A stretch of 64,000 bases of DNA from a bacterium (GTDB lineage: Bacteria; Patescibacteriota; Patescibacteriia; UBA1558; UBA10009), in contig JABHGM010000001.1 in NCBI GenBank assembly GCA_018672055.1, positions 136,884-200,883 on the forward strand, in the 5' to 3' direction. The notes under the pieces were generated by a model that did not search any database, had not been told where the DNA came from, and saw only the letters and a list, made by a program, of their open reading frames with translations. Below, piece after piece: positions 6,397-59,045 of the stretch (positions are counted from its first letter, which is position 1; each line of letters starts with the position of its first letter). The position numbers and the translations under genes are program-made.

Positions 6397-7888
<1,492 letters not shown>

Positions 7889-8044: not shown

Positions 8045-8119
8045 GCCACGGTAGCTCAGTGGTAGAGCAGTGGACTGAAAATCCACGTGTCGGCGGTTCA
8101 ATTCCACCCCGTGGCACCA
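8045..8119 (+). tRNA. tRNA-Phe (GAA), CCA encoded
   Basis: GCCACGG acceptor stem, GTTCAATTCC T-loop, anticodon loop CTGAAAA. Confidence 0.9.
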
Positions 8120-8196
8120 GGGCGATTAGCTCAGTTGGTTAGAGCGCTACACTGATAATGTAGAGGTCGGAGGTTCAACTCCTCCATCGCCCACCA
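8120..8196 (+). tRNA. tRNA-Ile (GAT), CCA encoded, directly abutting tRNA-Phe
   Basis: GGGCGAT acceptor stem, anticodon loop CTGATAA, GGTTCAACTCC T-loop. Confidence 0.9.
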
Positions 8197-42481: not shown

Positions 42482-43900
42482 ATGACAATAGCCAGATCAA
42501 TAGCAAACAATACATTTTGGCAGATAATCGGTAAAATAATCGGTACTTTTTTAGGTATCATAACTATTGGTTTATTAACTCGATACTTAGGCCAAACTGG
42601 TTTCGGACAATATACAACTGCTCTTGCATTTATGCAATTCTTTGGTGTTTTAGTAGACATGGGTCTTTATTTAATATGTCTTCGTGAAATATCAGCAAAT
42701 CCTGAAAGAGAAGAATATATAATAAGTAATATATTTACTTTAAGAATTATTTCTGCATTTATCTTTATTGGTGGTGGTGCTTTATTAATCTTTTTATTCC
42801 CCTACCCAGCTATAGTTAAATACTCAGCTCTCATAGTATCACTATCATTTTTCTTCATGTCTTTAGTCCAAATCTTAACAACTGTCTTTCAAAAAAATCT
42901 AAAGATGACACAAGTTGCTTTAGCAGAAGTAATTGGTAGAATTGGTTTCTTAATTGTTATATTCCTATTTATTTTTTATAAAGAAAACTTACCAGCTTTA
43001 ATGCTAGGTAATGTAGCTAATACTTTTATTTACTTTTTAATATTGTGGGTCCTAGTAAAAAAGTATGTAAAAATTACCTGGCTTATTGATCTACCGTATT
43101 GGAAAGAAATAATTACTAAAGCTTGGCCTATAGCTTTAGGCGTTGTTTTAAACTTAGTATATTTTAGAGCAGATACTATAATATTGAGCTTATATAAGCC
43201 AGCCAGTGAAGTTGGTATTTACGGAGCTCCATATAAAATATTGGAAATCATAGCTACTTTCCCTCATATGTTTATGGGATTAGTTATGCCTCTTTTAACT
43301 GCCGCTTGGCTTGTTAAAAATAAAGAAAAATTTCAAAATATTTTACAACATACTTTCAATTTCTTTTTAATTATAATAATACCAATGATACTAGGAACTA
43401 TTCCTTTATCTCACGGAATTATGAAATTAATAGCTGGAGACGGATTTACAGAGTCTGGTGCCATCTTACCGATTTTAATAGTAGCTACAGGCTTAATATT
43501 CTTAGGCACTATGTTTACCTATACTTTAGTAATTTTAGATAAGCAAAAAGCTATGCTTAAATATTTTGGCTTAGCTGCTGTACTTGCTTTAATCGGCTAC
43601 TTTATTTTCATTCCGCGTTACTCATACTTTGGAGCTGCCTGGGTCACAGTTATAGTAGAAGGCTTTATTACAATAATGGCTCTTAGTTTAACTTTCTACC
43701 ATGCTAAGATTAAACTTAAATTAAATGTCCTTTGGAAATCATTACTTGCTTCAATAATAATGACTTCTTGTTTATACTATTTATTACCCTTCAATTTAAA
43801 TATAATACTTCTACTTTTAATTGCTTGCCTTGTTTATTTTATCTTTCTATTTCTTCTTAAAGGAATTGACAAAAAAATGATAAATGCTATATTGAAATAG
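42482..43900 (+). CDS. MOP-superfamily polysaccharide/oligosaccharide flippase (Wzx/MurJ-like)
   Basis: 472 aa with about 14 TM helices. The N-terminal SIANNTFWQIIGKIIGTFLGIITIGLLTRYLG is typical of PF01943-type flippases. Confidence 0.6.
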   Translation: MTIARSIANNTFWQIIGKIIGTFLGIITIGLLTRYLGQTGFGQYTTALAFMQFFGVLVDMGLYLICLREISANPEREEYIISNIFTLRIISAFIFIGGGALLIFLFPYPAIVKYSALIVSLSFFFMSLVQILTTVFQKNLKMTQVALAEVIGRIGFLIVIFLFIFYKENLPALMLGNVANTFIYFLILWVLVKKYVKITWLIDLPYWKEIITKAWPIALGVVLNLVYFRADTIILSLYKPASEVGIYGAPYKILEIIATFPHMFMGLVMPLLTAAWLVKNKEKFQNILQHTFNFFLIIIIPMILGTIPLSHGIMKLIAGDGFTESGAILPILIVATGLIFLGTMFTYTLVILDKQKAMLKYFGLAAVLALIGYFIFIPRYSYFGAAWVTVIVEGFITIMALSLTFYHAKIKLKLNVLWKSLLASIIMTSCLYYLLPFNLNIILLLLIACLVYFIFLFLLKGIDKKMINAILK

Positions 43901-43928
43901 TTCTGTTCTAAATAACTTAGGAGAAATC

Positions 43929-44453
43929 GTGTTTAACAAAATAGACATTCTTAAAAAAATCTTCGCGCTAGATAATACAAGATTTGCTTTATGTCTTTTG
44001 GGAGCAATATCTTTAGGGATCCTAACCGCCTTATTTTCTCAATGGATTATAAAAAATACCTGGTTCAATCAATACTTTGCTGCCATAATGATTTCAATTA
44101 TTGTGCTTTCAAGCATACTTTACATTCTGTTACTTAAAAAATCACCTAGACGTAATAAATATAGTCAAGTAATTTATTTAATAGGGGCTGTAACTATATT
44201 GATATTAATGTCTCTTGAAGTATTTTCAGATGCAAATCAAGTAAAAGAACGAATCGTAATTATTACACTTACACTATTCTATCTAGTAATAATAGTTTTC
44301 ATGATAGATAGCAAAGATGATCAAAAATTATTTCTTGCAAATCAACACATGATAAGTGAATTAATAAAAGAAGTAAAAGTTAGACTAGCTATTGAAGAAA
44401 CCAAAGAAGACGAAAAAGAACTAAAAAGACTACTCAATCTACAAAAACAGTAG
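43929..44453 (+). CDS. hypothetical membrane protein
   Basis: 174-aa ORF with 4 TM helices and a charged C-terminal tail. Confidence 0.35.
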   Translation: MFNKIDILKKIFALDNTRFALCLLGAISLGILTALFSQWIIKNTWFNQYFAAIMISIIVLSSILYILLLKKSPRRNKYSQVIYLIGAVTILILMSLEVFSDANQVKERIVIITLTLFYLVIIVFMIDSKDDQKLFLANQHMISELIKEVKVRLAIEETKEDEKELKRLLNLQKQ

Positions 44454-44479
44454 TAATGCTTAAAAATATTTTCTCTATA

Positions 44480-44508
44480 AACGCTCAGTCCAATTGAGCG
44501 TTTTTTAT
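44480..44508 (+). terminator. rho-independent terminator
   Basis: AACGCTCA-gtccaat-TGAGCGTT followed by TTTTT. Confidence 0.5.
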
Positions 44509-44536
44509 TTACTTAAAAGTCTGTTAAAATAGAGCT

Positions 44537-45880
44537 ATGTTAAACATCGTATTAATCATTCTATTCTACCTATTATTCGCCTATTTAAGCTCAAAAAACG
44601 TTAAATATGGCCTCTTTATGGTAACTGCGTTACTTCCATCATATTTGGTTAGATTTAACGTTTTTAACATACCAACTACACTTTTAGAAGGTATGATATA
44701 TATTCTATTTATCATTTGGCTATTTAAAATGAAGAAAGAATATAGTCTTACCTTTAACCCACTTAAGTGGTTTAAATCTAAAAAAGAATTATTTAATCCA
44801 GTACCTAATATATTAAAATTACCTTTAATTCTCTTTTTAGTAGCAGCTACTATCTCCGTATTTGTATCACCTAACTTTGAATCTGCTCTAGGTTTATGGA
44901 AAGCATATTTTATTGATGCCCTATTATATTTCATAATATTTATTTATACTATTAAATCTAAAATTGATATACAAAATATTATCAGAGTTTTAGGTTTAAC
45001 TGTTATTGTAATTGGTTTATTTGCTATATATCAAAAAATAACTGGCAATTTAATTCCTAACCCTTTTTGGGCAGACGAAAGTACTAGACGCATAACAACA
45101 TTTTTTGGTTATCCCAATGCTAATGCTTTATTTATATCACCTATACTTCTTTTAACTTTAATTAATTTAGTTAAAGACAAAAAAAAGTATTTATATCAAA
45201 TACTAAATATTTTAATCTTAATACTTGGCTTTCTAACTGTGCTTTGGGCAGAATCAACAGGAGCCTTACTTGGTATCCTAGCTGGTTTAATAACAATATT
45301 TATTTTCACTAAAAAAACTAGACTTATAACTCTTACTTTAATTGCATTTGTTTTAATTGTTTCATTATTTATACCGGGAGTTACCTCAAAGATAGAAAGT
45401 TCATATATTTCCATAAATGAAACTCATCTTTCTGCATCACCAACTGATTTACAACTAAGAACAAGCCAGTGGCGTGAAACATATGAGCTTTTAAAAACAA
45501 AACCTATCTTAGGTGCTGGCTTAGCTGGGTATCAAACATTAGTTGAGCCATATCATATAAATAAACATATTGAAATCTATTTATATCCACATAACTTCTT
45601 TCTAAACTTTTATGTTGAGATTGGTCTACTAGGATTAATTAGTATTTGCTGGCTTCTTATTATATACTACAAGCTATCATATAAGTCAGAATATTCTATT
45701 TATTCCATAATCTTAAGTTCAGTAATGATTACTATTCTAGTACATGGTTTAGTAGATGTACCATATTTAAAAAATGACTTAGCAATATTATTTTGGATTA
45801 TCTTTGGCTTAACAATCAGTATATATAATACACGGAGAGGTGCCGGAGTGGTTGAACGGGCTGCTCTCGAAAAGCAGTAG
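44537..45880 (+). CDS. O-antigen ligase/polymerase-like (Wzy_C family) polytopic membrane protein
   Basis: About 12 TM helices with a large extracytoplasmic loop near the C-terminal third, as in Wzy/WaaL proteins. The last ~15 codons overlap tRNA-Ser. Confidence 0.5.
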   Translation: MLNIVLIILFYLLFAYLSSKNVKYGLFMVTALLPSYLVRFNVFNIPTTLLEGMIYILFIIWLFKMKKEYSLTFNPLKWFKSKKELFNPVPNILKLPLILFLVAATISVFVSPNFESALGLWKAYFIDALLYFIIFIYTIKSKIDIQNIIRVLGLTVIVIGLFAIYQKITGNLIPNPFWADESTRRITTFFGYPNANALFISPILLLTLINLVKDKKKYLYQILNILILILGFLTVLWAESTGALLGILAGLITIFIFTKKTRLITLTLIAFVLIVSLFIPGVTSKIESSYISINETHLSASPTDLQLRTSQWRETYELLKTKPILGAGLAGYQTLVEPYHINKHIEIYLYPHNFFLNFYVEIGLLGLISICWLLIIYYKLSYKSEYSIYSIILSSVMITILVHGLVDVPYLKNDLAILFWIIFGLTISIYNTRRGAGVVERAALEKQ

Positions 45881-45923
45881 ACTTTTACTAGTCACGGGGG
45901 TTCGAATCCCTCCCTCTCCGCCA
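45834..45923 (+). tRNA. tRNA-Ser (CGA) with a long variable arm, CCA encoded
   Basis: GGAGAGG acceptor stem, anticodon loop CTCGAAA, a long extra arm, GGTTCGAATCC T-loop. Confidence 0.9.
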
Positions 45924-45989
45924 TAAAAGATAATTTAAATTTTTAATGTTACTTTTTTCATTTTAATTCGTTGTATATATTAGAAAACC

Positions 45990-46514
45990 ATGGTTTTAGA
46001 AGAACAAAATATAATAGATATGTATGATAAATATGTAGATAAAATATATAATTTTGTTTACTATCGTACACATCATAAAGAAACTGCTGAGGATTTAACT
46101 AGCTTAATCTTTATTAAAGCTCTTGAAAACATTAGTAATTATAAAAAGGGAACTAATTTTAATGCTTGGATATATAGAATAGCTAGAAACACAATTATAG
46201 ATCATTATCGTACAAAACGAGAATTTAAAGATATTGATGATATTTGGGACTTAGCTTCTAGTGATGACCTAAGCTCAAAGATTGATAACAAAGAAACATT
46301 AAAAAAGATAGAAAAATACCTTAATACTTTGAAATCATTACAAAGAGATGTAATAATAATGAGAATCTGGGATAATCTATCTTTTAAAGAAATAAGTAAA
46401 ATTCTAAATAAAAGTGAAGGCTCTTTAAAAATGATGCTTAGCAGAAGCAGGAAAGAGTTAAAAGAAAATTATTTAACTATATTAATCCTCTTAATATCAA
46501 TAAAACATGGATAA
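45990..46514 (+). CDS. ECF (sigma-70 family group 4) RNA polymerase sigma factor
   Basis: Region 2 (YNFVYYRTHHKETAEDLTSLIFIKALENISNY...AWIYRIARNTIIDHYR) and region 4 (LQRDVIIMRIWDNLSFKEISKILNKSEGSLKMMLSRSRKELK). Confidence 0.8.
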   Translation: MVLEEQNIIDMYDKYVDKIYNFVYYRTHHKETAEDLTSLIFIKALENISNYKKGTNFNAWIYRIARNTIIDHYRTKREFKDIDDIWDLASSDDLSSKIDNKETLKKIEKYLNTLKSLQRDVIIMRIWDNLSFKEISKILNKSEGSLKMMLSRSRKELKENYLTILILLISIKHG

Positions 46515-47994
46515 AGAAATTAAAAACATTTTAAATGATCTATATAAAATAGATAAAAGTTTTAAAAAACATGAATCTGAATTAATTAAAACTATAAATG
46601 AATTAATAAATAATAAGCCAAAAATTATTATTAACAAAGATTTTAGAGAAGAATTAAAATCTAAACTCATTAAACAAGCTAAAAAGCTCAATAAAACAAA
46701 AATTAAAAAACTAAACTTAAACTTTATGAAATTAAGAAACTATTATTATGTATTCGGCAGTTTTGCTATTATTATCTTAATAGTTATATCATCTGTTTAC
46801 TACTCAAATCAAACAAGTAACCTAGCCTTTGGATTAAATATTGAATCTGTTTCAGAAAATGCCTTTGGATCTATTGAAAATAATCTTTCCGCTAATGAAA
46901 CCGTCGACAGGCAAGCATTGGGCATTGGCGCTGGAGGCGGAGGCGGTTATGCAACTGCTTCTTCAGAAATGGCTACTAAATCAGATACAGCTGTTTCTAT
47001 GATAGCCCCTGATTATATGAATAATTTTCAATACATATATGAAGGTGATGAAATAACTATCTCTGAAAATGAAATGGCAGTACTTAAAAAATCAAAAAAC
47101 ATTAATAATCTTAATCTTTCATCAATAATTAATAACTTTAATTTTGAAACTGTTAATTTAAATAAGTTTTCTGATGCAAAAGTCCAAAATATTTCGTTTG
47201 CTCAAGAAAAAGACTTTGGTTATCAAGTTTATCTTAATTTCTTAGAAGGCCAGGTTAGTCTTAACCAAAACTACAGCACTTGGCCACAAAATAATGAGCA
47301 TGGATGTATAGGTGATGTTTGTACAATAGAAATACAGCAAAGGACTTCTATTTCTGATGTTCCAGAAAACCAGGCTTTAATCAATATTGCAAATGATTTT
47401 TTAAATGAATATGACATAGATACTTCCCTATACGGCGAACCTGAAGTAGATAACAGATGGAAAATATATTATGAACAATCCAAAGATAAGGCTAGCTACT
47501 ATATTCCAGAAGTTATTAATGTGCTCTATCCTCTCAAAATCAATAACCAAATTGTATATAATGAAGGAGGCAATAAAGAGGGTTTAAATCTGGCTATTCA
47601 TATTAAATATAAGAAGGTTTATAGTCTACATAACCTAACCTCGCAGAATTATCAAAGTTCAATGTATAAAACTGAGACTGATATAAATAAAATTTTGGAT
47701 ATAGCAAGACGAGGAGGTAGAAATGTTTATACATATCAAAACAATCAGAAAGTTATTGAAGTTAAAATAGGAACACCAACACTATCATATGTAAAAATAT
47801 GGCAATATAATAATAATCAAAATGATGAATTATTGGTTCCAGCATTTATATTTCCCATCTTAGAAAAACCAGCTGTTAACTATTTTTACAAAGATAATAT
47901 AATAGTCCCTCTTATTAGTGATATGCTTGATTCAGATAATAATCCACGAGTAATGCCTATGCCTCTTGTTGAACCTGCAATAATGGAAAATTAA
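46507..47994 (+). CDS. putative anti-sigma factor (cytoplasmic N-domain, single TM, large extracytoplasmic domain)
   Basis: Overlaps the sigma factor by 8 nt. Has a ~80-aa N-terminal region, TM YYVFGSFAIIILIVISSVYY, and a ~395-aa outer domain. Assignment is by position and topology only. Confidence 0.35.
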   Translation: MDKEIKNILNDLYKIDKSFKKHESELIKTINELINNKPKIIINKDFREELKSKLIKQAKKLNKTKIKKLNLNFMKLRNYYYVFGSFAIIILIVISSVYYSNQTSNLAFGLNIESVSENAFGSIENNLSANETVDRQALGIGAGGGGGYATASSEMATKSDTAVSMIAPDYMNNFQYIYEGDEITISENEMAVLKKSKNINNLNLSSIINNFNFETVNLNKFSDAKVQNISFAQEKDFGYQVYLNFLEGQVSLNQNYSTWPQNNEHGCIGDVCTIEIQQRTSISDVPENQALINIANDFLNEYDIDTSLYGEPEVDNRWKIYYEQSKDKASYYIPEVINVLYPLKINNQIVYNEGGNKEGLNLAIHIKYKKVYSLHNLTSQNYQSSMYKTETDINKILDIARRGGRNVYTYQNNQKVIEVKIGTPTLSYVKIWQYNNNQNDELLVPAFIFPILEKPAVNYFYKDNIIVPLISDMLDSDNNPRVMPMPLVEPAIMEN

Positions 47995-48005
47995 TAATTA
48001 TATAT

Positions 48006-48040
48006 AAAAGCTCTAATAATATACTTAGAGCTTTTATATT
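48006..48040 (+). terminator. rho-independent terminator
   Basis: AAAGCTCTA-10 nt-TAGAGCTTT followed by a T-rich run. Confidence 0.45.
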
Positions 48041-48074
48041 TACCTAATATTAGCTAAATTATATCAATTATTTA

Positions 48075-48103
48075 TTGACAAAACTTCTAACACATGCTAA
48101 TAT
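48075..48103 (+). promoter_or_regulatory. sigma70-like promoter of a short leader or sRNA unit
   Basis: TTGACA (48075-48080), a 17-nt spacer, TAATAT (48098-48103). Confidence 0.45.
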
Positions 48104-48165
48104 AATATATCGTCTACTAACTATGGTAGATGAAATAAAAGTCCGAATGGACAAGGAGAATCTAT

Positions 48166-48210
48166 ATGATTCAAACAAAACCAGTATTGAACAAAAGCCA
48201 TACAAGCTAA
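48166..48210 (+). CDS. 14-codon mini-ORF with a strong Shine-Dalgarno (possible leader peptide or small protein)
   Basis: AAGGAG (48154-48159) sits 6 nt before the ATG at 48166. The ORF reads MIQTKPVLNKSHTS then TAA. SD sites this strong are rare elsewhere in the window. Confidence 0.25.
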   Translation: MIQTKPVLNKSHTS

Positions 48211-48349
48211 TCAAATCTATGCCGGTGACAAGGTGCTAAAAGCAACCTTGAAAAATTCCCTGAAGTATTAAACTTTTAAAATCAGATTACAATACTCCTA
48301 TTAGAATAATTTTAGGATAATTGCTTTAAAATGATAATAATCTAATTTT

Positions 48350-48379
48350 GAAAATCCTGCTTCAGGGATTTTCTTTTTA
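48350..48379 (+). terminator. rho-independent terminator with a possible alternative antiterminator pairing
   Basis: GAAAATCC-tgcttcag-GGATTTTC followed by TTTTT. The CTTCAGGGA segment of the loop and 3' arm is perfectly complementary to TCCCTGAAG at 48258-48266. Confidence 0.5.
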
Positions 48380-48382
48380 TTA

Positions 48383-48411
48383 TTGCTTATATACTTTAAA
48401 AATTGTATAAT
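48383..48411 (+). promoter_or_regulatory. sigma70-like promoter immediately upstream of galU
   Basis: TTGCTT (48383-48388), a 17-nt spacer, TGTATAAT (48404-48411). It would give a near-leaderless transcript for the ATG at 48424. Confidence 0.4.
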
Positions 48412-48423
48412 AATATCATATTT

Positions 48424-49287
48424 ATGACTAAAATTCGCAAAGCAATTATACCAGTAGCTGGTTTTGGAACTAGATTCCTACCTGCTTCAAAAGCTCAGCC
48501 TAAAGAAATGTTGCCTATAGTTGATAAACCAACTATTCAATACATTGTCGAAGGCTGTGTTAAGGCTGGAATAAAAGATATTATCTTTGTTACTTCAAGT
48601 AACAAACGTGCTGTTGAAGATCACTTTGATAATTCAACTGGTTTAGAAAATTGGTTAAAAAAACAAGGCAAAACTAAACAGTTAAATGAAATTAAAAAAA
48701 TTGCTCAGATGGCTAATTTTATTTACATCCGACAAAAAGGACCTATGGGTAATGGTACTCCTGTTTTAAATGCTGAAAAAATAATTGGTGATGAGCCCTT
48801 TATGGTTTTTTGGGGTGATGAATTCTATACTGGTCCTAAATCTTGGGTAAAACAAATGATTGATGTCTATGAAAAATATGGAGATCCAGTTCTAGCTGCT
48901 GTTAAAACTGATAAAGAAGGCCAGGCTCGTTACGGAATTATTGATGGCGTTAAAGTAGATAAAAATATTTATGAAATTAAAAAAGTAATTGAAAAACCTG
49001 GTCCTAAAAAAGCACCTTCTAAATTAGCTTCAGTTGGTGGTTATCTTTTAACACCTGATATATTCCCTATTTTAAAAAAATTAAAACCTAGTAAAGGTGG
49101 TGAAGTATGGCTAGCTGATGCTATTCATACACTAAGCAAACAAAGAGCTATGTATGCCTGTGAAATTGATGGTGAATTATATGATGCCGGAACTCTATTT
49201 GGTTGGTTAAAGGCTAATGTTGATCTAGCTTTAACTCATCCTAAAATAAGTAAAGAATTTAAAAAATATCTTAAAAAAATTAAGTAA
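48424..49287 (+). CDS. galU: UTP--glucose-1-phosphate uridylyltransferase
   Basis: MTKIRKAIIPVAGFGTRFLPASKAQPKEMLPIVDKPTIQYIVEG is the canonical GalU N-terminus. The ORF track starts at 48403, but that start would place the -10 element inside the coding sequence. Confidence 0.8.
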   Translation: MTKIRKAIIPVAGFGTRFLPASKAQPKEMLPIVDKPTIQYIVEGCVKAGIKDIIFVTSSNKRAVEDHFDNSTGLENWLKKQGKTKQLNEIKKIAQMANFIYIRQKGPMGNGTPVLNAEKIIGDEPFMVFWGDEFYTGPKSWVKQMIDVYEKYGDPVLAAVKTDKEGQARYGIIDGVKVDKNIYEIKKVIEKPGPKKAPSKLASVGGYLLTPDIFPILKKLKPSKGGEVWLADAIHTLSKQRAMYACEIDGELYDAGTLFGWLKANVDLALTHPKISKEFKKYLKKIK

Positions 49288-50660
49288 TGAGATTATTTTC
49301 AAACAAAATATTCGTTTTACTCTTAATTAGTACTTTCTTTTTAACTACTGGTTTATCTTGTAAATTATTTCCCGGTAAACAAGCTCCTGCTGCATATACC
49401 AAAGCTCAAACTTTAACTTTTTGGGGTGTCTGGGATACAAGTGATGATTTAGAAGTGTTGATAAAAGATTTTAAAGCTATACATCCAAATATTAAAATAA
49501 GTTATAAGAAGTTTAGATATCAAGAATATGAACAAAAACTTTTAGAAGCTTGGGCTGAAGACAGAGGTCCGGATATATATAGTATTCCAGCTACTTGGCT
49601 TAGAAAATATAAATCAAAAATTACTCCAATGCCGGATAGCACTAAACTTAGTTTTCAAGAAGTAAAAACTACTTTAGGTAAAACTGAAATAAATACCTAT
49701 GTTAGAGATATTCCAACCTACAGTGCTCGTGACATTAAAAATGAATTCGTTGATGTTGTCTATAATGATGTAATAATCGGTGGTAAAGTATTAGGTATAC
49801 CATTTAGCATGGATACTTTAGTTCTTTACTATAATAAAGATTTACTAGATGCTAGCGATATACCTGTACCTCCAACTGATTGGACTGAATTAAAAGAAGC
49901 TGTTAAAAAAATTACTAAAGTAAATAATAATAATGAAATATTACAAGCTGGTGTAGCTTTGGGTGTAGCTGACAATCTACCACATAGCGTTGATATAGCT
50001 TCTTTACTCATGATTCAAAATGGAGCACAAATGGTTGATGCTCGTGGTCAAGTTGCTTTCCATACTTCACCTACTAAAGATAAAAGTTATGCTCCAGGAC
50101 TCCAAGCTTTACAATTCTATCTAGACTTTGCAGATCCAATAAAAGAAGTATATTCTTGGAATAATAATCAAAATGATGCCTTTAATGCTTTTGTCTCGGG
50201 TAAACTTGCTATGTTCTACGGCTATTCATATCACTTACCTCTCATTAAAACTCAAGCTCCCAAATTAGAAATAGATATTGCCCCAATGACTCAGATAGAA
50301 GGTTCTCAAAAAAATATTAATTATACTGATTACTGGGTCTATACTGTTTCTCATAAATCAGCCAATACTGATGCTGCTTGGGGTTTTATAAACTTTGCTT
50401 CAGGTGACAAAGAAGTAACTAAGTATTTAAATCAAACTAAAAAACCTACAGCTTTAAGAAGTTTAATTACAAAGCAAAAAGCAGATCCAGAACTAGCAGT
50501 CTTTGCAGATCAAGTATTAACTGCTACCCATTGGTATAGAGGTAATGATGCTTTAAAAATGGAAGAATTCTTTAAAGAAATGTTAGACAGGCTACCTAAT
50601 GCAGCAGATCCTATTGAAATAATGCAAAACGCAGCTTTAAAAATAAATCAAACTTTATAA
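49287..50660 (+). CDS. ABC-type extracellular solute-binding lipoprotein (sugar-binding family 1), orphan
   Basis: Lipobox LTTGLSC, then TLTFWGVWDTSDD...LEAWAEDRGPDIYSIPATW typical of SBP_bac_1. No permease or ATPase genes are adjacent. The start overlaps the galU stop, and the stop lies 1 nt before the first pilin-like gene. Confidence 0.6.
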   Translation: MRLFSNKIFVLLLISTFFLTTGLSCKLFPGKQAPAAYTKAQTLTFWGVWDTSDDLEVLIKDFKAIHPNIKISYKKFRYQEYEQKLLEAWAEDRGPDIYSIPATWLRKYKSKITPMPDSTKLSFQEVKTTLGKTEINTYVRDIPTYSARDIKNEFVDVVYNDVIIGGKVLGIPFSMDTLVLYYNKDLLDASDIPVPPTDWTELKEAVKKITKVNNNNEILQAGVALGVADNLPHSVDIASLLMIQNGAQMVDARGQVAFHTSPTKDKSYAPGLQALQFYLDFADPIKEVYSWNNNQNDAFNAFVSGKLAMFYGYSYHLPLIKTQAPKLEIDIAPMTQIEGSQKNINYTDYWVYTVSHKSANTDAAWGFINFASGDKEVTKYLNQTKKPTALRSLITKQKADPELAVFADQVLTATHWYRGNDALKMEEFFKEMLDRLPNAADPIEIMQNAALKINQTL

Positions 50661-50661
50661 T

Positions 50662-51417
50662 ATGAAATTATTTATATTAATAATTACTTTGCTTATACTA
50701 TTAAACCCATTAGCAGCTGAGGCTAGTGTCTTACCTGCTTGTACAGCTACTGGTAATTGTGGTTTATGTGACTTTTTTGATACTTTCATTAATATTATAA
50801 ATTGGTTACTAGGCGTTGTTGGTGGAATTGCTCTTTTCTTATTTGGCTGGCATGGTTTTGGTATGATAACTAGCGCAGGTAACCCAGAAAAAGTAACTGC
50901 TGCCAGAAAAGGCATGATGCATACTGTTTTAGGAATAGTTATTATTATTTTCTCTTGGTTCTTAGTTACTATCATAATCGGCATATTACTATCAACACCT
51001 GGTTCTACAGGTGATGATGCTTTCAAAAATACTTTATTTAATAATGAAGCTGCTTGGAATCAATATTGTGTAGGTAAGACTGATATTAAAAAATGCCAAG
51101 GCAGAGGCCTAGGTAGTCCTTGTGGTAGTGGTAACTTCTGTTATCCTGACGATGGTAACAAAAAAGTACTAACTTGTACTAATTCAGCTTTTATAGATAA
51201 TAAAGATGGGGATGCTCTGATTGAGGTCAAGAATGCCTGTGAATATTGGGCCAATAGGCCACTCAACCCTAAAGAAGGTTTTCATAATAATCCATACACT
51301 GGCTATACTTGTTTAGAAAAAAAATTATGTGATCCATATGAAAATTTAGGTGCCAGTTATTGTGCTACTTCTGATGCTGAATGTTGTCTGACGCTCCCCT
51401 TTGATCCTTTTTTATAA
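50662..51417 (+). CDS. VirB2/TrbC-like (T4SS-type) pilin-family paralog 1, with a ~140-aa Cys-rich C-terminal module
   Basis: Signal peptide, a variable segment (ACTATGNCGLCDFF), the helix-loop-helix core LFGWHGFGMITSAGNPEKVTAARKG then IIIFSWFLVTIIIG, and a tail with about 15 Cys. Confidence 0.5.
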   Translation: MKLFILIITLLILLNPLAAEASVLPACTATGNCGLCDFFDTFINIINWLLGVVGGIALFLFGWHGFGMITSAGNPEKVTAARKGMMHTVLGIVIIIFSWFLVTIIIGILLSTPGSTGDDAFKNTLFNNEAAWNQYCVGKTDIKKCQGRGLGSPCGSGNFCYPDDGNKKVLTCTNSAFIDNKDGDALIEVKNACEYWANRPLNPKEGFHNNPYTGYTCLEKKLCDPYENLGASYCATSDAECCLTLPFDPFL

Positions 51418-51431
51418 TAATATAAATAAAT

Positions 51432-51827
51432 ATGATAAATAAAAAAAACATTTCAATTCTTTTCCTAGCTATTCTAATGGCTACTCTAATCATTCCTCTA
51501 CCTTTAACTCTAAATGCTGCTGGTAACTGTGGTAACAGTTATTCTGAAGACGATTCAGGAAGTTGTTTAGAAAATCCTTTAGGCTCAGAAACAATTGATC
51601 TGCCAACTTTATATGGTAGGTTACTTTTCTACGGTGTCCTTTTTGTAACTGGTGGTGTAGCTTTAATTATGTTTGTAATAGGTGGCTTTATGTGGATGAC
51701 TGCAGCAGGTAATCCTGAGAAAATTAAAAAAGGTAAAGACACATTAATGTGGGCTATCTTGGGAATAATATTGATATTTTCTAGTTATTCCATACTTCGT
51801 GCTATCTTTGAAATATTACAATTTTAA
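51432..51827 (+). CDS. VirB2/TrbC-like pilin-family paralog 2
   Basis: Signal peptide, a GNCG-containing variable segment, then the core GGFMWMTAAGNPEKIKKGKDTLMWAILGIILIF. Confidence 0.55.
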   Translation: MINKKNISILFLAILMATLIIPLPLTLNAAGNCGNSYSEDDSGSCLENPLGSETIDLPTLYGRLLFYGVLFVTGGVALIMFVIGGFMWMTAAGNPEKIKKGKDTLMWAILGIILIFSSYSILRAIFEILQF

Positions 51828-51961
51828 ATTATCTAGTTTTATTATTAGAATTATTGTATAATATAACTAGGTTATCCACATTTAAAATAAATTTAAATAA
51901 TATTAATTAAAGTAAATTAAAACAAAAACAAAATTTTAATTTACATTTAAGGAGCAAGTCT

Positions 51962-52351
51962 ATGAAAAAATACTTTTCAAAAAAAAGTATCATGGCTTCA
52001 GCAGCAACTATTCTTTGGGTAGTCCCAATGATAGTTGGCGCACAAGTTGATGCTGACTTTGGATTAGGTTATCCTGCAGCAACTGGCTTGGGCACAAACG
52101 ACTTAAAAGACACTATTATAGCTGTACTAAATGTACTGCTTGGTTTCTTAGGCATAATTGCCGTAATTGTAATCTTACTTGGTGGTTTCAAATGGATGAC
52201 AGCCGCTGGTAATGAAGACAAAGTCGCTGAAGCTAAAAAACTACTTGGCGCTGGTATTGTCGGTATAATAATTATATTATCCGCCTATGCAATTGCCACT
52301 TACGTTATTACTCAGATTCAAACCTCGACCGGTGGCACTTTAATTGAGTGA
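51962..52351 (+). CDS. VirB2/TrbC-like pilin-family paralog 3
   Basis: Strong SD AAGGAG. Signal peptide, then the core GGFKWMTAAGNEDKVAEAKKLLGAGIVGIIIILSAY. Confidence 0.55.
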   Translation: MKKYFSKKSIMASAATILWVVPMIVGAQVDADFGLGYPAATGLGTNDLKDTIIAVLNVLLGFLGIIAVIVILLGGFKWMTAAGNEDKVAEAKKLLGAGIVGIIIILSAYAIATYVITQIQTSTGGTLIE

Positions 52352-52450
52352 TAAACTTTAAAAAACTATAGTTATTTAAAGTCTAGACGTTTTCCTCCTC
52401 TGTTTGAGGGGGAATGGCTTAGACTGTAATGACAACTTATACAAAATTAA

Positions 52451-52864
52451 ATGTTTGAAAAACTATACAAACAGTTAATAATTCGGGCATTATTCTTTGC
52501 CCTATTTTTGTATTTGGTAATACCTTTTAATTTACAAGCTTCCCCTGCTGGTGATATTGCTACTCAAATATTAGAAGATACAGCTGTTGAAGCTAAATTA
52601 ATTAATTCAGCAGACAATGCTTTAAATATCTTTGAAATCTCTGGCTTTGTAATTAATATAGTTTTAGGATTTGTAGGTATAATATTTCTAGTCCTTATAA
52701 TTGCTGGTGGCTATATGTGGATGACTGCAGGAGGTAATGATGAAAAAGTAACTAAAGGTAAATCTCTTTTAACTCAATCAATTATAGCTTTAGCTGTTAT
52801 TCTAAGCGCTTTCCTATTAACCAACTTTGTTATAATAAGATTAATGACTAATCTATGGGGTTAA
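52451..52864 (+). CDS. VirB2/TrbC-like pilin-family paralog 4
   Basis: Core GGYMWMTAGGNDEKVTKGKSLLTQSIIALAVILSAF. Confidence 0.55.
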   Translation: MFEKLYKQLIIRALFFALFLYLVIPFNLQASPAGDIATQILEDTAVEAKLINSADNALNIFEISGFVINIVLGFVGIIFLVLIIAGGYMWMTAGGNDEKVTKGKSLLTQSIIALAVILSAFLLTNFVIIRLMTNLWG

Positions 52865-53526
52865 TTAAAAAAAACTTATTTTTAATTCTAATACTATGTT
52901 TTTTAATTATTCCTTTTTATACTCAAGCTGAAGCTGCTTGTCCAAAAAGTCTTAGTATTCAAGAATGTGTTAAATGGGGTCTAGAACAAACTAGCGCTGA
53001 AGCAGGCTATACATTTAATGAAAATCTTGATTCTCAAAGTATTTCAGAAACTGTAGGTAATATTATTTCAAATATTTTAACCTTTTTAGGTGCTTTAGTC
53101 TTGATAATGATTATTACGGCTGGTTTTCAATGGTTAACTGCCCAAGGCGATGAAGAGAAGCTAAACACTGCTAAATCTAGACTGAAGAATGCATTAATTG
53201 GTTTATTAATAATTGTAGCTGCATTTGCTATTACTACATTTGTAACTAGTAATCTAAAAAATATTATTGATGATGCTACAATACCTGATAATCCTGCTAA
53301 TTATATATGCTCTAATTATGATTATGATGTCTGTATTGATAATGTTGACAGAGCTTGTGGTTATTGGATTCCTGATCAAGGATGCTATCCAAACCCTTTT
53401 GACTGTGATTTACGATATCCTTCAGATTGTGAAATACCTGATCCTGATACAGGCCATGATGTTTGTTTGGGTGAAGGCGGTAACTGTATAATAACGCCCC
53501 AAGGCGATAGTTGTTATTGTAATTAA
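52855..53526 (+). CDS. VirB2/TrbC-like pilin-family paralog 5, with a Cys-rich C-terminal module
   Basis: Core AGFQWLTAQGDEEKLNTAKSRLKNALIGLLIIVAAF, then an ~85-aa tail with 12 Cys (CSNYDYDVCIDNVDRACGYW...CYCN). Overlaps paralog 4 by 10 nt. Confidence 0.55.
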   Translation: MGLIKKNLFLILILCFLIIPFYTQAEAACPKSLSIQECVKWGLEQTSAEAGYTFNENLDSQSISETVGNIISNILTFLGALVLIMIITAGFQWLTAQGDEEKLNTAKSRLKNALIGLLIIVAAFAITTFVTSNLKNIIDDATIPDNPANYICSNYDYDVCIDNVDRACGYWIPDQGCYPNPFDCDLRYPSDCEIPDPDTGHDVCLGEGGNCIITPQGDSCYCN

Positions 53527-53527
53527 T

Positions 53528-54073
53528 ATGAATAAAAAATATATAATTCTGTTTCTAACCTTAATAATCTTACTTATTCCTGTTTTAACATACTCCGCAA
53601 ATATTACAGATATAATAGAAGGGTTAGATAAAACAGCAGAAAAATCACTTTTAATAGATCCTAATGAAGAGGCTACTACAATATATGATATGATTGGACG
53701 TATTCTATTTTTTACTTTAAGCCTTCTTGGTATTATTTTCTTAGGTTTAATTATATTTGGTGGTATTGGTTGGTTAACAGCTGCTGGCAATGAAGAAAAG
53801 ATAACTAAAGCTAAAGGTTTGATGTCTAATGCTTTAATTGGTTTAATAATAATAATTGCTGCATATACTATAGCTAACTTTGTAATATTTACTTTAGCTG
53901 ATAAAATAACTGAGGGCAATGATTCATTATGTATAGAAGCTTCAGGAGAATGCCAAAACCATGCATTGGGTGCCACAGATTGCACAATTAATGGTTCTCC
54001 TGGTACTTATGCTTCTAATTATTGTGGAAGTCAATCAAATGATTCTCTTTATCGTTGCTGTATAGCTAACTAA
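53528..54073 (+). CDS. VirB2/TrbC-like pilin-family paralog 6, with a Cys-rich C-terminal module
   Basis: Core GGIGWLTAAGNEEKITKAKGLMSNALIGLIIIIAAY, then a ~60-aa tail with 8 Cys. Starts 1 nt after paralog 5. Confidence 0.55.
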   Translation: MNKKYIILFLTLIILLIPVLTYSANITDIIEGLDKTAEKSLLIDPNEEATTIYDMIGRILFFTLSLLGIIFLGLIIFGGIGWLTAAGNEEKITKAKGLMSNALIGLIIIIAAYTIANFVIFTLADKITEGNDSLCIEASGECQNHALGATDCTINGSPGTYASNYCGSQSNDSLYRCCIAN

Positions 54074-54079
54074 TAATTT

Positions 54080-54589
54080 ATGTTTTTAAATTTAAAAAAA
54101 TCTTTATTTATTCTAATAATAAGTTTTTTAATACTAAGTCCTTCTTTATTATTCGCTCAATCTCCAGAGGATCCTAGTAATCAACCTAATTATACTTATA
54201 AGCAAATTTGTAAATGGGGTGATAATTTAACTGATTGCTTAGAAGAAAATTATAATACTATTACTGGGACTGAGAATGATGATTTTGAAAAAGTAACTTC
54301 TGCAAGTTTATCTACAAAAATAGGAATTATCATTTCATACGTTTTAGCATTTTTAGGAGTTATTTTCTTAGTTTTAATTGTAATTTCTGGATTTCAATGG
54401 TTAACAGCTGGTGGGAATGAAGAAACTGTAACTACTTCTAGAAAAAGAATTATTAATGCTGTTGTTGGCCTCATTATTATTCTCTCTGCCTACGTTATTA
54501 CTGCTTTTGTTACTGATAGGATAGAAAGATCTATTGATAAAACAAATACTGTTAGTATTAATTTGCCTAGTGACTATTTATCTATTTAA
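54080..54589 (+). CDS. VirB2/TrbC-like pilin-family paralog 7
   Basis: Core SGFQWLTAGGNEETVTTSRKRIINAVVGLIIILSAY. Confidence 0.55.
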   Translation: MFLNLKKSLFILIISFLILSPSLLFAQSPEDPSNQPNYTYKQICKWGDNLTDCLEENYNTITGTENDDFEKVTSASLSTKIGIIISYVLAFLGVIFLVLIVISGFQWLTAGGNEETVTTSRKRIINAVVGLIIILSAYVITAFVTDRIERSIDKTNTVSINLPSDYLSI

Positions 54590-54604
54590 TATTTAATTAT
54601 TTAT

Positions 54605-54976
54605 ATGACTAAAAAAATTATAATTTCATTACTAATACTAATTATCTCTAGTTTTTTAATAATCCCCGCTCTAGCTCAAACAAATATAAATACCAATCTT
54701 GAAGCAGCTGGAGAAGGTGCTAAGTATAATATAGACGTTGATGATAATACTATACCTGAAATAATTGGTAAAGTAGTGGCTACTCTACTGGCTTTTGTCA
54801 CCTCAATTTTTATGATGATGGTTGTTTTCTCTGGCGTTCAATGGATGGTTGCTGGAGGTAATGAAGAAAAAATTACTAAAGCTCGTGGTAGATTAATAAG
54901 TAGTATTATTGGCGTAGGTATAACTGCTGCTGCTTATTTCATAACCTGGTTAATTACTGAAACTTTACTAAAATAA
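54605..54976 (+). CDS. VirB2/TrbC-like pilin-family paralog 8
   Basis: Core SGVQWMVAGGNEEKITKARGRLISSIIGVGITAAAY. Confidence 0.55.
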   Translation: MTKKIIISLLILIISSFLIIPALAQTNINTNLEAAGEGAKYNIDVDDNTIPEIIGKVVATLLAFVTSIFMMMVVFSGVQWMVAGGNEEKITKARGRLISSIIGVGITAAAYFITWLITETLLK

Positions 54977-54979
54977 AAT

Positions 54980-55648
54980 ATGAAATCATTTCTTTTAATA
55001 ATTGCTGTTTGTTTCTTAATCCTAGCACCCTTAACTGTGTCTAATGCTTTAAATTTAGGCCAAGAAACATATTTAGAAAGTTTAGCTGGTACAGCCGGCT
55101 ATCAAATTGATAGTGTTCAATCTAATACCTATCTTGATTCGACAATTGGTAAACTACTAGCAAGTATATTTACTTTAGTTGGTATTTCTTTCTTATCACT
55201 TATCATTGTTTCTGGATTTCAATGGATAAACGCTCATGGTAATGAAGAAAGCGCTAAAAAAGCTAAAGATCGAATAATCCATGCTACTATTGGATTAATT
55301 ATTATTGCTTCTTCCTATTTAATCTCCTTCTTCATATATAATTCAATAAATTCCTCAATTACTGGCGAGGTTAATAACTTTGTTCCAGAACCAGGCTTAG
55401 AATGTATAGATAATACAAATTGTATTGGGCATGAAAATGGACCTTACTGTAACTATAATCAAGCTACTGGTTATTGTGGTGGGTGTACAGATGACGATGA
55501 TTGTTCAAGCCCTACTCCTGAATGTGTACGTCCTCTTATTGGCCCTAGCTCATGTCATGAATGCGTAATAGATGCAGATTGTTCTGATAATTTTGGTCCC
55601 AGTTTTGTTTGTGGTAATTTCGAATGTATAGAAAATAATGATTTTTAA
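54980..55648 (+). CDS. VirB2/TrbC-like pilin-family paralog 9, with a Cys-rich C-terminal module
   Basis: Core SGFQWINAHGNEESAKKAKDRIIHATIGLIIIASSY, then a ~100-aa tail with 13 Cys, including the repeated C-x-E-C...D-x-C motifs CTDDDDCSSPTPEC and CHECVIDADC. Confidence 0.55.
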   Translation: MKSFLLIIAVCFLILAPLTVSNALNLGQETYLESLAGTAGYQIDSVQSNTYLDSTIGKLLASIFTLVGISFLSLIIVSGFQWINAHGNEESAKKAKDRIIHATIGLIIIASSYLISFFIYNSINSSITGEVNNFVPEPGLECIDNTNCIGHENGPYCNYNQATGYCGGCTDDDDCSSPTPECVRPLIGPSSCHECVIDADCSDNFGPSFVCGNFECIENNDF

Positions 55649-55653
55649 TTAAT

Positions 55654-56631
55654 ATGATAAAAAAATATAAAAAAATAATATTAAGCTCTCTAATCCTACT
55701 TTTTTTAATACTGGGAATAAATGTTTTAGCACAAGGTGGTTTTCAACAAGAGTTAATAAATAATATTGCTAGTACTACTGAAATTGTTGGTCAAGGACCA
55801 GGTTACAATACAAACGCTCAAGGTGAGGATTTTTTTGGAGGTATTTTAATTAAAATATTTGGTTATGGAATTAGTTTCTTAGGCGTTTTCTTCATGTTAC
55901 TTATTGTCTACTCTGGATTTCAATGGATGTTTTCTAGTGGTAATGAAGAAAAGGTTACTCAAGCTAAAACTAGAATTACTCAAGCAGTGACAGGTTTAGT
56001 TATTGTCTTAGGTGCTTTTATAATCTCCTATGCTATATTCTCATTCTTGACTACAGAATATTTAGAAACCCCTTCCTCTGGCATTCAAGCTCCTGATGGT
56101 TATCAAGAGCAAATAGCTTGTAGTAATTCTAATAGTGATACGCCTCCTGAATGCGCTGATAGAGGAACTAGAATATATTGTTCTAGCTCTGGTAATTGTG
56201 TTGAATGTTTAGACGACGCACGTTGTGCAGAAGCTCCATTTGAACCGCTCGGCTTAACATCTTGCGACCCAACTTGGAATGTTTGTACTTTCGATTTAGA
56301 TCATACATGTGCTGAAATTACCAACGCTGGCTTATGCATATCTAATGAAAGTTGTAATTGGGCACTGACACCGTCTAACCCAACATGGGAGACAGGTGTA
56401 TGTGTTAATTCAAATGAATATAATTGCACAACTGGACAATGCCCTCAAGATAGGCCATATTGCATAAATAATAATCAACCAGAAGGAGAATATAGCTGTC
56501 ATGAATGCAGCCCTGGTATAGATGCTTCATGTGGTCTTTTAAAAAACTGCACACAGCCATTTCTTGAAGGTGGTGAAGGTATCAATGAAGATGATTATCA
56601 TCTCTACATTTGTACAATTTTTGGTTTTTAA
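55654..56631 (+). CDS. VirB2/TrbC-like pilin-family paralog 10, with a long (~185-aa) Cys-rich C-terminal module
   Basis: Core SGFQWMFSSGNEEKVTQAKTRITQAVTGLVIVLGAF, then a tail with about 24 Cys including CVECLDDARC and CHECSPGIDASC, the same motif seen in paralog 9. Confidence 0.55.
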   Translation: MIKKYKKIILSSLILLFLILGINVLAQGGFQQELINNIASTTEIVGQGPGYNTNAQGEDFFGGILIKIFGYGISFLGVFFMLLIVYSGFQWMFSSGNEEKVTQAKTRITQAVTGLVIVLGAFIISYAIFSFLTTEYLETPSSGIQAPDGYQEQIACSNSNSDTPPECADRGTRIYCSSSGNCVECLDDARCAEAPFEPLGLTSCDPTWNVCTFDLDHTCAEITNAGLCISNESCNWALTPSNPTWETGVCVNSNEYNCTTGQCPQDRPYCINNNQPEGEYSCHECSPGIDASCGLLKNCTQPFLEGGEGINEDDYHLYICTIFGF

Positions 56632-56643
56632 ATAATAAAACAT

Positions 56644-57051
56644 ATGAAAAAAACAATATTAAAAATTTCTAGCCTTTCCCTTATTATAGGATTAGGCTTT
56701 ACAAAAATAGCTTTGGCTATGCCAACGTTAAATCCTTTAGCCAGAATGAAACACACTGCTGATGTTATTGGTCTGTCCACTGTAAATGTTCATCCAGCTG
56801 AAGTAGCAGCTAATATTATTGCCATCATACTCGGATTAGTAGGTATTATATTTTTTGTGATGATACTTTTTTCTGGTTATGAGCTTATGACTTCTGGTGG
56901 TAACGAAGAAGTAGTGGGTAGAGCTAAAAAAAGATTACAATATGCAATTATTGGAATTGTAGTAATCTCTCTTTCATACATAATAACTATTTATGTTTCT
57001 GAATTAATAAACAGAGCTACATGTGAAGGTTATTATTGTATTAATGAATAA
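56644..57051 (+). CDS. VirB2/TrbC-like pilin-family paralog 11
   Basis: Core SGYELMTSGGNEEVVGRAKKRLQYAIIGIVVISLSY, with the conserved Trp replaced, and a short C-terminal CEGYYCINE. A hairpin and T-run (AGACTGACTTCAT/ATGAAGTCAGTCT) follow the stop. Confidence 0.5.
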   Translation: MKKTILKISSLSLIIGLGFTKIALAMPTLNPLARMKHTADVIGLSTVNVHPAEVAANIIAIILGLVGIIFFVMILFSGYELMTSGGNEEVVGRAKKRLQYAIIGIVVISLSYIITIYVSELINRATCEGYYCINE

Positions 57052-57125: not shown

Positions 57126-59045
57126 ATGATTAATTATATTAAAGAAAAACAAATTAAAATATTAATAATATCTATTATTACCTATATTACTATTTTTTCT
57201 TTAATTTGCTACTGGAAGTACCTTAATTTTGGCTATAATGGCTTAGATTTGACGATATTTAACCAAGTTTTCTTTAATTCGGTACATGGTGACTTTTTTA
57301 GGTTTACTATCCATCCTGGGCTATATTTAGGCGATCACTTTACGCCTATTATTCTATTACTTCTGCCATTATATTACTTTTTTCAAAGCCCAATTACTCT
57401 GCTTATTCTACAAACTATTATCCTAGCTTTATCTGCTTGGCCAATATATTTAATTGCTAAAAAATATTTACCTTCTGCCTGGCCACTTTTTATTTCCTTA
57501 GCCTGGCTTTTTAATCCATTCGTACAAAATGTAAATCTTTTTGAATTTCATTTACTTCCTTTTGCAATATTTTTAATATTCTGGACGTTTTATTTTTATT
57601 TAAAAAATAACTTTAACTTATTTCTTCTATTCTCTCTTCTGAGCATGTTGGTTAGAGAAGATGTGGCTTTAGTAATTATTATGATGGCTGTACTGGCTCT
57701 TTTTGAAAAAAGAAAATGGTTTTGGTTTATTATTCCAGGGGTAATAAGTATTATCTATTTCTTAACCTCTATGTCTATAATCGGACATTTTACTCCTGAC
57801 GGACAATACAAATTTCTTTACTACTACAATTTTTTAGGTAACAGCTTTAAAGAAATAATTATAACTGCTTTAACTAAACCTTGGCTTATTATTAAACAAA
57901 TTGCATCATGGCATAACTTATTTTTTACTCTAACGCTTTTTATGCCCTTTGCTTATCTATTAAGACTTAAATATTTGATACCAGCTTTTTTAATCTACCT
58001 CCAACTAATCATTGGGAGTGCTAATGACTCAGTTTTGGTCCTTAGTATGCACTATGTTTCTTTATTACTGCCCCCAATATTTATTGCTTTTATTATGTTT
58101 TTGAATAGATTCCTATTAACTGATAACTATTTAAAATTAAAAAGCCTTCTTCAATTAAATAATTCATTATTTATATTAATTCTTTCAACAATTGTATTGT
58201 ATAGTTCTTTAACTATGGGCCCTCTGCCCTCTGTTGCTAAAAATTTAATAAGCCCCGGTTGGTCAGAAGAAAAACTATTAATTAAAAAAGAATTAGTTAA
58301 AAATATTTCACCTAGTGATAATTTAGGAGCTACTTATGAATTTCTATCACCCATGTCGTCAAGGCATAATCTCTATTCAATGCATTATGCGTTCTTAGGT
58401 AAATTACAATTTTCTAATACAGATTATGAGCTACCATTAGACGTTGATACATTGCTTATTGATTTTAATGATTTTATATACTATGAACTACAATACCCTG
58501 ACGAGCCAACTTGGCAATCATATTATCAAAAAGGTGATGATAGTATAAGGAAGTTAATTGAAGAACGTAGTTTTGGGATAACTAAAATTAATGACTTATA
58601 TGTTTTAATGAAAAAAGATGTAAATAATAATATTAAGTTATATGAAATAGTTGACGATACTAAGTTTGATGAAGTGGATTATAAAAAAATAGGTGAAAAT
58701 ATTTCATTCCTGGGTTATGAAAATAATTTAGATCATATTTCACTATATTTTAAATCAAATTCTAAACTTAATGAAGACTATCAAATAAGATTAATTGGTA
58801 AAAATAATAATGAAGAAGTTTTTAATAGATATTTACCACTAGCCTACGGCTTATACCCCACCAGAGAGTGGGGAAAAGATGAAATTATTAAAATTAATTA
58901 TTATTTGAATTTAAAAGATGTATCTTCTTTAGAATTAAATTTAGTTAATCTTCAAGGCTACTACACTTTAAATAACCTAGGAACCATGATAAATAAAATA
59001 ACCCAAGAAAATACCCTGGGTTATGTTAAAATCGATTTAGATTAA
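57126..59045 (+). CDS. large polytopic membrane protein with a C-terminal extracytoplasmic domain; GT-C-fold glycosyltransferase-like (DUF2079-like) candidate
   Basis: About 11 TM helices in the first 360 aa. After TM1 comes a long first external loop with Asp/His residues (GYNGLDLTIFNQVFFNSVHGDFFRFTIHPGLYLGDHF) as in GT-C enzymes, then a ~280-aa soluble C-terminal domain. Confidence 0.3.
   Translation: MINYIKEKQIKILIISIITYITIFSLICYWKYLNFGYNGLDLTIFNQVFFNSVHGDFFRFTIHPGLYLGDHFTPIILLLLPLYYFFQSPITLLILQTIILALSAWPIYLIAKKYLPSAWPLFISLAWLFNPFVQNVNLFEFHLLPFAIFLIFWTFYFYLKNNFNLFLLFSLLSMLVREDVALVIIMMAVLALFEKRKWFWFIIPGVISIIYFLTSMSIIGHFTPDGQYKFLYYYNFLGNSFKEIIITALTKPWLIIKQIASWHNLFFTLTLFMPFAYLLRLKYLIPAFLIYLQLIIGSANDSVLVLSMHYVSLLLPPIFIAFIMFLNRFLLTDNYLKLKSLLQLNNSLFILILSTIVLYSSLTMGPLPSVAKNLISPGWSEEKLLIKKELVKNISPSDNLGATYEFLSPMSSRHNLYSMHYAFLGKLQFSNTDYELPLDVDTLLIDFNDFIYYELQYPDEPTWQSYYQKGDDSIRKLIEERSFGITKINDLYVLMKKDVNNNIKLYEIVDDTKFDEVDYKKIGENISFLGYENNLDHISLYFKSNSKLNEDYQIRLIGKNNNEEVFNRYLPLAYGLYPTREWGKDEIIKINYYLNLKDVSSLELNLVNLQGYYTLNNLGTMINKITQENTLGYVKIDLD

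Follow-up and report, generated by a model that had tools for sequence, protein, structure and literature searches.

A candidate gene for a structured RNA of about 270 nucleotides upstream of galU in an uncultivated member of the Patescibacteria

The 64,000-nt stretch of DNA analyzed here (the window) comes from an uncultivated member of the Patescibacteria (Candidate Phyla Radiation, CPR), and the named relatives of its GalU protein include Komeilibacteria, Uhrbacteria, Falkowbacteria, and Gottesmanbacteria. Gaps between genes in the window are mostly shorter than 150 nt. The largest non-rRNA intergenic region measures 430 nt and lies upstream of galU; it has no gene call in public assemblies, and it holds a unit of about 270 bases that extends from a promoter to a terminator, 5' of galU and on the same strand. 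On one side of the unit is the conserved galU promoter and on the other the terminator of an upstream sigma-factor/495-aa gene pair; the terminator hairpin of the 495-aa gene forms its left boundary. The features of the region, with the energies of their predicted folds, are the following.

48002 to 48039, no strand assigned: 15-pair hairpin, terminator of the 495-aa gene upstream (MFE -16.1, z -5.5)
48075 to 48103, plus strand: probable sigma-70-type promoter, TTGACA, 17-nt spacer, TGcTAATAT (extended -10)
48110 to 48133, plus strand: predicted hairpin P1, 10 bp including 2 G-U pairs (-11.3 kcal/mol, z -6.3)
48123 to 48239, plus strand: alternative 38-codon ORF, MVDEIKVRMDKENLYDSNKTSIEQKPYKLIKSMPVTRC, with no Shine-Dalgarno (SD) sequence and with its AUG inside P1
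48141 to 48152, plus strand: predicted small hairpin P2, GUCC-GAAU-GGAC, directly 5' of the SD (-5.3 kcal/mol)
48153 to 48210, plus strand: SD AAGGAG (48153-48158) and 14-codon ORF, ATG 48166-48168, stop 48208-48210
48229 to 48250, plus strand: predicted hairpin P5, 9 bp with one bulge (-9.6 kcal/mol, z -3.3)
48250 to 48373, plus strand: 3' domain, a 124-nt imperfect palindrome predicted to form a long hairpin (-33.1 kcal/mol, z -5.9)
48350 to 48381, plus strand: predicted local terminator hairpin (48350-48373, 9 pairs) and U-tract UUUUUAUU (48374-48381) (-10.7 kcal/mol, z -3.7)
48383 to 48411, plus strand: predicted promoter of galU itself, TTGCTT at 48383-48388 (3/6 matches), 17-nt spacer, TATAAT at 48406-48411

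All of the individual signals that an initial annotation had read from this region were recovered in our analysis, one of them at coordinates shifted by one base. The TTGACA-17-TAATAT promoter that it placed at 48075-48103 is present as read, with TTGACA at 48075-48080 and TAATAT at 48098-48103, and the promoter scan adds a TG at 48095-96, at the spacing of an extended -10 element. By sequence match, the site has the -35 and -10 hexamers and the 16-18 nt spacing of a sigma-70-type promoter. Twelve sites in the window combine a perfect TTGACA with at least 10 of 12 matches, eight of which are intergenic and upstream of genes, and another two of the twelve have a gene start no more than about 80 nt away. 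Because intergenic sites of such quality in the window nearly always precede genes, the one at 48075-48103 is probably a real promoter, and transcription from it would start at about 48110. The intrinsic terminator claimed 5' of galU was likewise found by a scan, as the predicted G+C-containing hairpin and U-tract at 48350-48381. Terminator-like sites are about three-fold enriched in this genome (21 vs. 7.7 ± 2.9 expected) and are located at gene ends. The SD and mini-ORF between promoter and terminator were also confirmed in the sequence, down to the positions of AAGGAG and ATG and the count of 14 codons.

The second promoter that had been proposed, at 48383-48411, is present as well. A TTG precedes its TATAAT, and 12 nt separate the end of the promoter from the galU ATG at 48424, which leaves a predicted galU leader of about 6 nt. 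Its -10 box, ATTGTATAAT, is found 11-14 nt 5' of the galU start codon, both in the window and in four relatives (the region lies at 48402-48424 in the window, at 220-246 in L001, and just before position 4001 in L083, L085, and L087). Since ATTGTATAAT is conserved at that spacing in five lineages, galU is likely transcribed from a promoter of its own as a nearly leaderless mRNA, and the promoter-to-ATG spacing agrees with the earlier prediction of such an mRNA. A promoter is similarly placed at the gene at 42482, where the -35 box starts 38 nt 5' of the start codon. Downstream, positions 48424-57051 are occupied by galU, a solute-binding protein (SBP) gene, and then at least 12 consecutive PF18895 (T4SS_pilin-like) genes, and the order galU-SBP-pilin recurs in relatives at 70-87% GalU identity (L001, L083-L089). 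This operon is likely involved in cell surface and host attachment.

Read from these signals, the candidate RNA would run from about 48110 to about 48381, a length of about 265-272 nt; that it is expressed and ends at these positions we infer from the sequence. The plus strand of 48105-48385 has a predicted MFE of -72 kcal/mol and a z score of -7.1 relative to shuffled sequence, compared with -4.6 for the minus strand. The two halves differ in this respect. The 5' domain (48110-48249) reaches z = -4.2 on the plus strand and only -1.4 on the minus strand, so its structure is strand-specific; it comprises P1 at the extreme 5' end of the predicted RNA, P2, the exposed SD and mini-ORF, and P5, and a middle part of the RNA, about 48153-48228, is A-rich and weakly structured. 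The 3' domain, by contrast, folds alike on both strands (z -5.9 on plus, -5.8 on minus). Because both strands are equally structured, it is possibly a palindrome at the DNA level and not a selected RNA fold.

The mini-ORF begins 7 nt after its SD, and its predicted product is MIQTKPVLNKSHTS. The arrangement AAGGAG-N5-7-ATG occurs six times in the window, counting both strands, and the other five occurrences are the starts of long genes. Our estimate from counts is that about one such arrangement would occur in the window by chance, and translation of the mini-ORF from 48166 is therefore suggestive but not significant. In the predicted fold, a weak 5-bp hairpin holds the start codon in its loop, where it should be accessible, and the ORF region shows the A-rich skew typical of coding strands in the window. 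No residue occurs more than twice in MIQTKPVLNKSHTS, and none is repeated in adjacent positions, so that the run of regulatory codons seen in leader peptides is absent. Six-frame translation of the unit region yielded short ORFs only, on which ground a pseudogene reading was dropped. A HMMER search with the 38-aa ORF against 1.84 billion representative proteins returned no hits, and back-translated patterns of a 54-aa ORF found no relative among metagenome contigs.

The initial annotation had also described the terminator as one of two mutually exclusive structures, a terminator/antiterminator pair, on the basis of an exact complement to its loop and 3' arm at 48258-48266. The complementarity is exact, and its position is one base off: TCCCTGAAG lies at 48257-48265 and is complementary to 48360-48368. 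A longer match of 13 nt at 92% joins 48253-65 to 48360-72. Among 5000 dinucleotide shuffles, 1.7% gave an exact complement of at least 9 nt to the terminator arm. In the predicted fold, this pairing is part of the basal helix of the 3' domain, which has 11 pairs between 48257-67 and 48358-68 and 5 A-U/G-C pairs between 48250-54 and 48369-73, 16 pairs in all. At equilibrium, the pair probabilities of the basal helix are 0.83-1.0 (at least 0.99 for 9 of the 11 pairs) and that of the local hairpin is about 0, and imposing the local hairpin on the predicted fold costs about 8 kcal/mol. In folds of successively longer prefixes, the local 5' arm pairs with 48274-82 while the 3' arm has yet to be made. 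The 5' partner actually used by the terminator 3' arm is a prediction of the folding model.

The two helices do compete for one 3' arm, as had been claimed, but neither behaves as an antiterminator. In attenuation, the antiterminator sequesters the 5' arm of the terminator or otherwise leaves the U-proximal arm unpaired. Here, the upstream segment 48250-48267 pairs with the terminator loop and 3' arm (48358-73) and not with the 5' arm, and therefore the alternative helix also adjoins the U-tract; the local and the long-range helix both stop at C48373, abutting it. Since either helix remains stable beside the U-tract, 48250-67 is best regarded as a competitor of the local 5' arm and not as an antiterminator. 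A helix that closes a structured insert of 90 nt might terminate transcription as efficiently as a simple hairpin does.

Comparison with relatives shows that the unit is not a constant part of the galU locus. In the closest relative, L001 (87% GalU identity), the order of the 495-aa gene, galU, SBP, and pilin genes is the same as in the window, and the two sequences align up to window position 48016, within the 5' arm of the upstream terminator, which L001 retains, and again from 48381. Between these alignable parts are 30 nt in L001 vs. 364 nt in the window, and the whole unit of about 340 nt is absent, from which it follows that a single terminator is directly followed by the galU promoter in L001. 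At seven loci from relatives with 70-75% GalU identity, the gap preceding galU is only 103-141 nt long. More broadly, the gap upstream of galU is short at most of 80 Patescibacteria galU loci, and no known RNA was identified in the long gaps found in other lineages among them. For galU expression in relatives, the unit is dispensable. Within the species, contigs from four samples are 100% identical across the unit region. These contigs are nearly clonal (0-2 SNPs per 3-11 kb, in samples from different projects), and for this reason the identity is uninformative on selection. The assembly index places the organism itself in about 150 blocks (147-157 for each protein looked up; window 43507-52287; L081, L082, L090, L091, L093, and L094).

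Searches for homologs and known RNAs gave a consistent picture. Rfam, run on the whole window and on 601-nt and 286-nt stretches, returned nothing for the unit at gathering thresholds and no credible match to E 10, and for the 286-nt stretch no hit to E 10 was obtained for the housekeeping RNAs (6S, SRP RNA, RNase P RNA, and tmRNA); ARAGORN found no tRNA or tmRNA at the unit. Elsewhere in the window, tRNA-Phe (8045-8119) comes after a 16S rRNA gene (6398-7887) and is directly adjoined by tRNA-Ile (8120-8196), beyond which lie protein genes; the rRNA genes appear unlinked, as the window lacks a 23S gene. A tRNA-Ser(CGA) gene (45834-45923) overlaps the 3' end of a program-listed 447-aa ORF (44537-45880) encoding a Wzy_C-family membrane protein. 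Blastn, nhmmer, and tblastn searches against the 80 Patescibacteria galU loci and the seven loci at 70-75% identity identified no homolog of the unit, and only L001 aligns. DNA patterns matched nothing in metagenome contigs, three DNA patterns matched nothing in IMG/VR, and blastn against phage and plasmid collections gave no match to the unit. The lineage is very sparsely sampled in the collections searched. As homologs were found nowhere searched, the candidate RNA has no support from covariation or conservation.

Two partial resemblances were considered and rejected. An 18-mer that spans a hairpin and the SD, GTCCGAATGGACAAGGAG, occurs exactly in a viral contig (L092, IMG/VR UViG_3300001750_000012, 5751-5768), where it lies 6 nt 5' of a phage gene's ATG; that gene is followed by a large ORF (6622-7647). 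The flanking sequences are unrelated, about one chance match of an 18-mer is estimated in IMG/VR, and we do not regard this contig as carrying a homolog. Within the genome, neither the window nor a further 20 kb of flanking DNA holds a second copy of the unit (together about 84 kb of roughly 1 Mb); the similarity at 58082-58197 proved to reflect only the AT-richness of a stretch within a gene.

In two places, the candidate RNA perfectly complements the start of galU: 48317-48327 (11 nt) is the complement of codons 6-9 at 48439-48449, and 48176-48184 (9 nt) that of 48458-48466, all within the first 15 codons. By our estimate, both are near chance level for AT-rich sequence. Target prediction by duplex folding against 63 translation-initiation regions in the window singled out nothing, and galU ranked 11th of the 63; the screen was crude and gave unrealistic AT-rich duplexes.

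Overall, we see about an even chance that the unit is a single-copy, species-specific gene, transcribed on its own into a structured RNA of about 270 nt. The initial annotation had raised, as one of its options, an independent gene for a small RNA or a small protein. The anatomy of the unit supports that option, homologs and conservation do not, and it stands as a candidate. As we picture it, RNA polymerase would start at about 48110 from the strong extended -10 promoter, the 10-bp 5' hairpin would protect the 5' end of the transcript, the A-rich middle part would expose the ribosome-binding site and the 14-codon ORF, and the basal helix of the 124-nt hairpin together with the U-tract would end transcription 2 nt before the -35 box of galU, which would be transcribed separately from its own promoter into a nearly leaderless mRNA. 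The unit is insulated from galU by its own terminator and then the conserved galU promoter. The candidate RNA would most likely be trans-acting, with its open middle part engaging in base-pairing or binding a protein, and it may be dual-function and also translated.

The most serious competitor to this reading, which we consider somewhat unlikely, is that the unit is functionless or selfish DNA, a recent insertion of about 340 bp or a MITE/ERIC-like remnant whose promoter- and terminator-like signals arose by chance. Such an origin would fit the presence/absence difference between close relatives, the 124-bp palindrome that folds equally on both strands, and the failure of every search to find a homolog. 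It is harder to reconcile with a single copy in 84 kb of genome, with boundaries at which neither terminal inverted repeats nor a target-site duplication can clearly be read, with the strand-specific structure of the 5' domain, and with a promoter and terminator that match those of real genes in quality. Moreover, this genome is streamlined, with short intergenic gaps, and should therefore shed DNA that has no function. A small-protein gene seems distinctly unlikely. In that case, the transcript would be an mRNA for MIQTKPVLNKSHTS or for the 38-aa ORF from 48123, and its hairpins would act only as 5' stabilizer and terminator. The coding potential of the mini-ORF, with an AAGGAG-7 nt-ATG arrangement shared with five real gene starts in the window, an accessible start codon, and the A-rich skew of a coding strand, speaks for this; yet about one SD-ATG pair is expected by chance, a 45-nt ORF would carry a structured 3' UTR of 170 nt, and gene callers predict nothing there, while the 38-aa ORF combines a missing SD with an AUG buried in P1 and has no homolog.

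The remaining readings tie the unit to galU. The initial annotation had put forward an attenuator or riboswitch-like leader, in which transcripts from 48075 would enter galU when the terminator is bypassed, and we consider any such cis-acting control of galU (attenuator, riboswitch, or read-through) very improbable. The position immediately 5' of galU on the same strand, the two competing 5' partners of the terminator 3' arm, and the 11-nt complementarity of 48317-48327 to galU codons 6-9 are what one might expect of such a leader. The helix geometry contradicts it, as both competing helices reach the U-tract and the terminator arm is never free, and so do the conserved promoter that intervenes between terminator and gene and the absence of the unit from L001 and from the relatives at 70-75% identity. 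The short gaps at most of the 80 Patescibacteria galU loci, with no known RNA in the long ones, the absence of an Rfam aptamer, and a mini-ORF with no regulatory codon run argue in the same direction. Covariance models had been named as one check on the leader, and none matched at gathering thresholds; comparative alignment had been named as another, and it yielded no homolog in which compensatory changes could appear. Lack of conservation in relatives, which the annotation itself had listed as refuting its reading, is what the alignments show. A further, more elaborate proposal strikes us as quite unlikely. It holds that the unit is a regulatory RNA specific to this species and of recent acquisition, perhaps with a second role as mRNA for the 14-aa peptide, and that its strong promoter and a terminator adjoining the galU -35 box modulate the galU-SBP-pilin surface operon, either in trans via the 11-nt match or by transcriptional interference or read-through.

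To our knowledge, riboregulation in the Candidate Phyla Radiation is essentially unexplored, and a literature search found no described regulatory small RNA for CPR/Patescibacteria. If the RNA is real, it would be among the very few candidate regulatory RNAs in this radiation, and it would represent a clean case in which close relatives with a streamlined genome differ by the gain or loss of an sRNA gene. If it should also modulate galU, the locus would be a case of riboregulation arising de novo in the genome of an ultra-small symbiont. The unit is an orphan prediction from one clonal species, and it offers a specific and inexpensive target for the mapping of metatranscriptome reads.

Among known systems, leader-peptide attenuators of the trp, his, and pyrBI type share with the unit an SD and short ORF 5' of a terminator and two alternative helices. 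They differ in that the alternative helix of the unit uses the 3' arm of the terminator and abuts the U-tract, a conserved promoter lies between its terminator and galU, its mini-ORF has no regulatory codon run, and the unit is absent from relatives. The best Rfam match is to csRNA (RF02379), a Cia-dependent RNA of Streptococcus, at 48295-48376, with 23.8 bits against a gathering threshold of 57 and an E value of about 0.4-0.9. The unit resembles csRNA in its AT-rich body, a CUCCU anti-SD-like motif, and a terminal hairpin. The CiaR box has the form TTTAAG-N5-TTTAAG. In our reading of the sequence, no CiaR box lies upstream of the unit, and the host phylum differs; identity as a csRNA was rejected, given the score below the gathering threshold. 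With ERIC/MITE-like palindromic intergenic repeats, as they are generally described, the unit has in common an imperfect palindrome of about 124 bp and a location in a transcribed intergenic region, and unlike them it is single-copy in 84 kb, has no recognizable terminal repeats or target-site duplication, and possesses a strand-specific 5' domain and its own promoter.

The closest parallel is with the stand-alone bacterial sRNAs that end in a Rho-independent terminator, which include dual-function, peptide-encoding RNAs such as SgrS/SgrT, RNAIII/hld, and SR1/SR1P. The unit departs from these in having no homolog, known target, or known chaperone, in a predicted length of about 270 nt that places it at the long end of their size range, in a terminator that forms the base of a 124-nt hairpin, and in its CPR/Patescibacteria host. 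It resembles them in its intergenic location, its own sigma-70-type promoter, its 5' hairpin and structured body, its terminator hairpin with a U-tract, and the short ORF with a good ribosome-binding site that such RNAs optionally carry.
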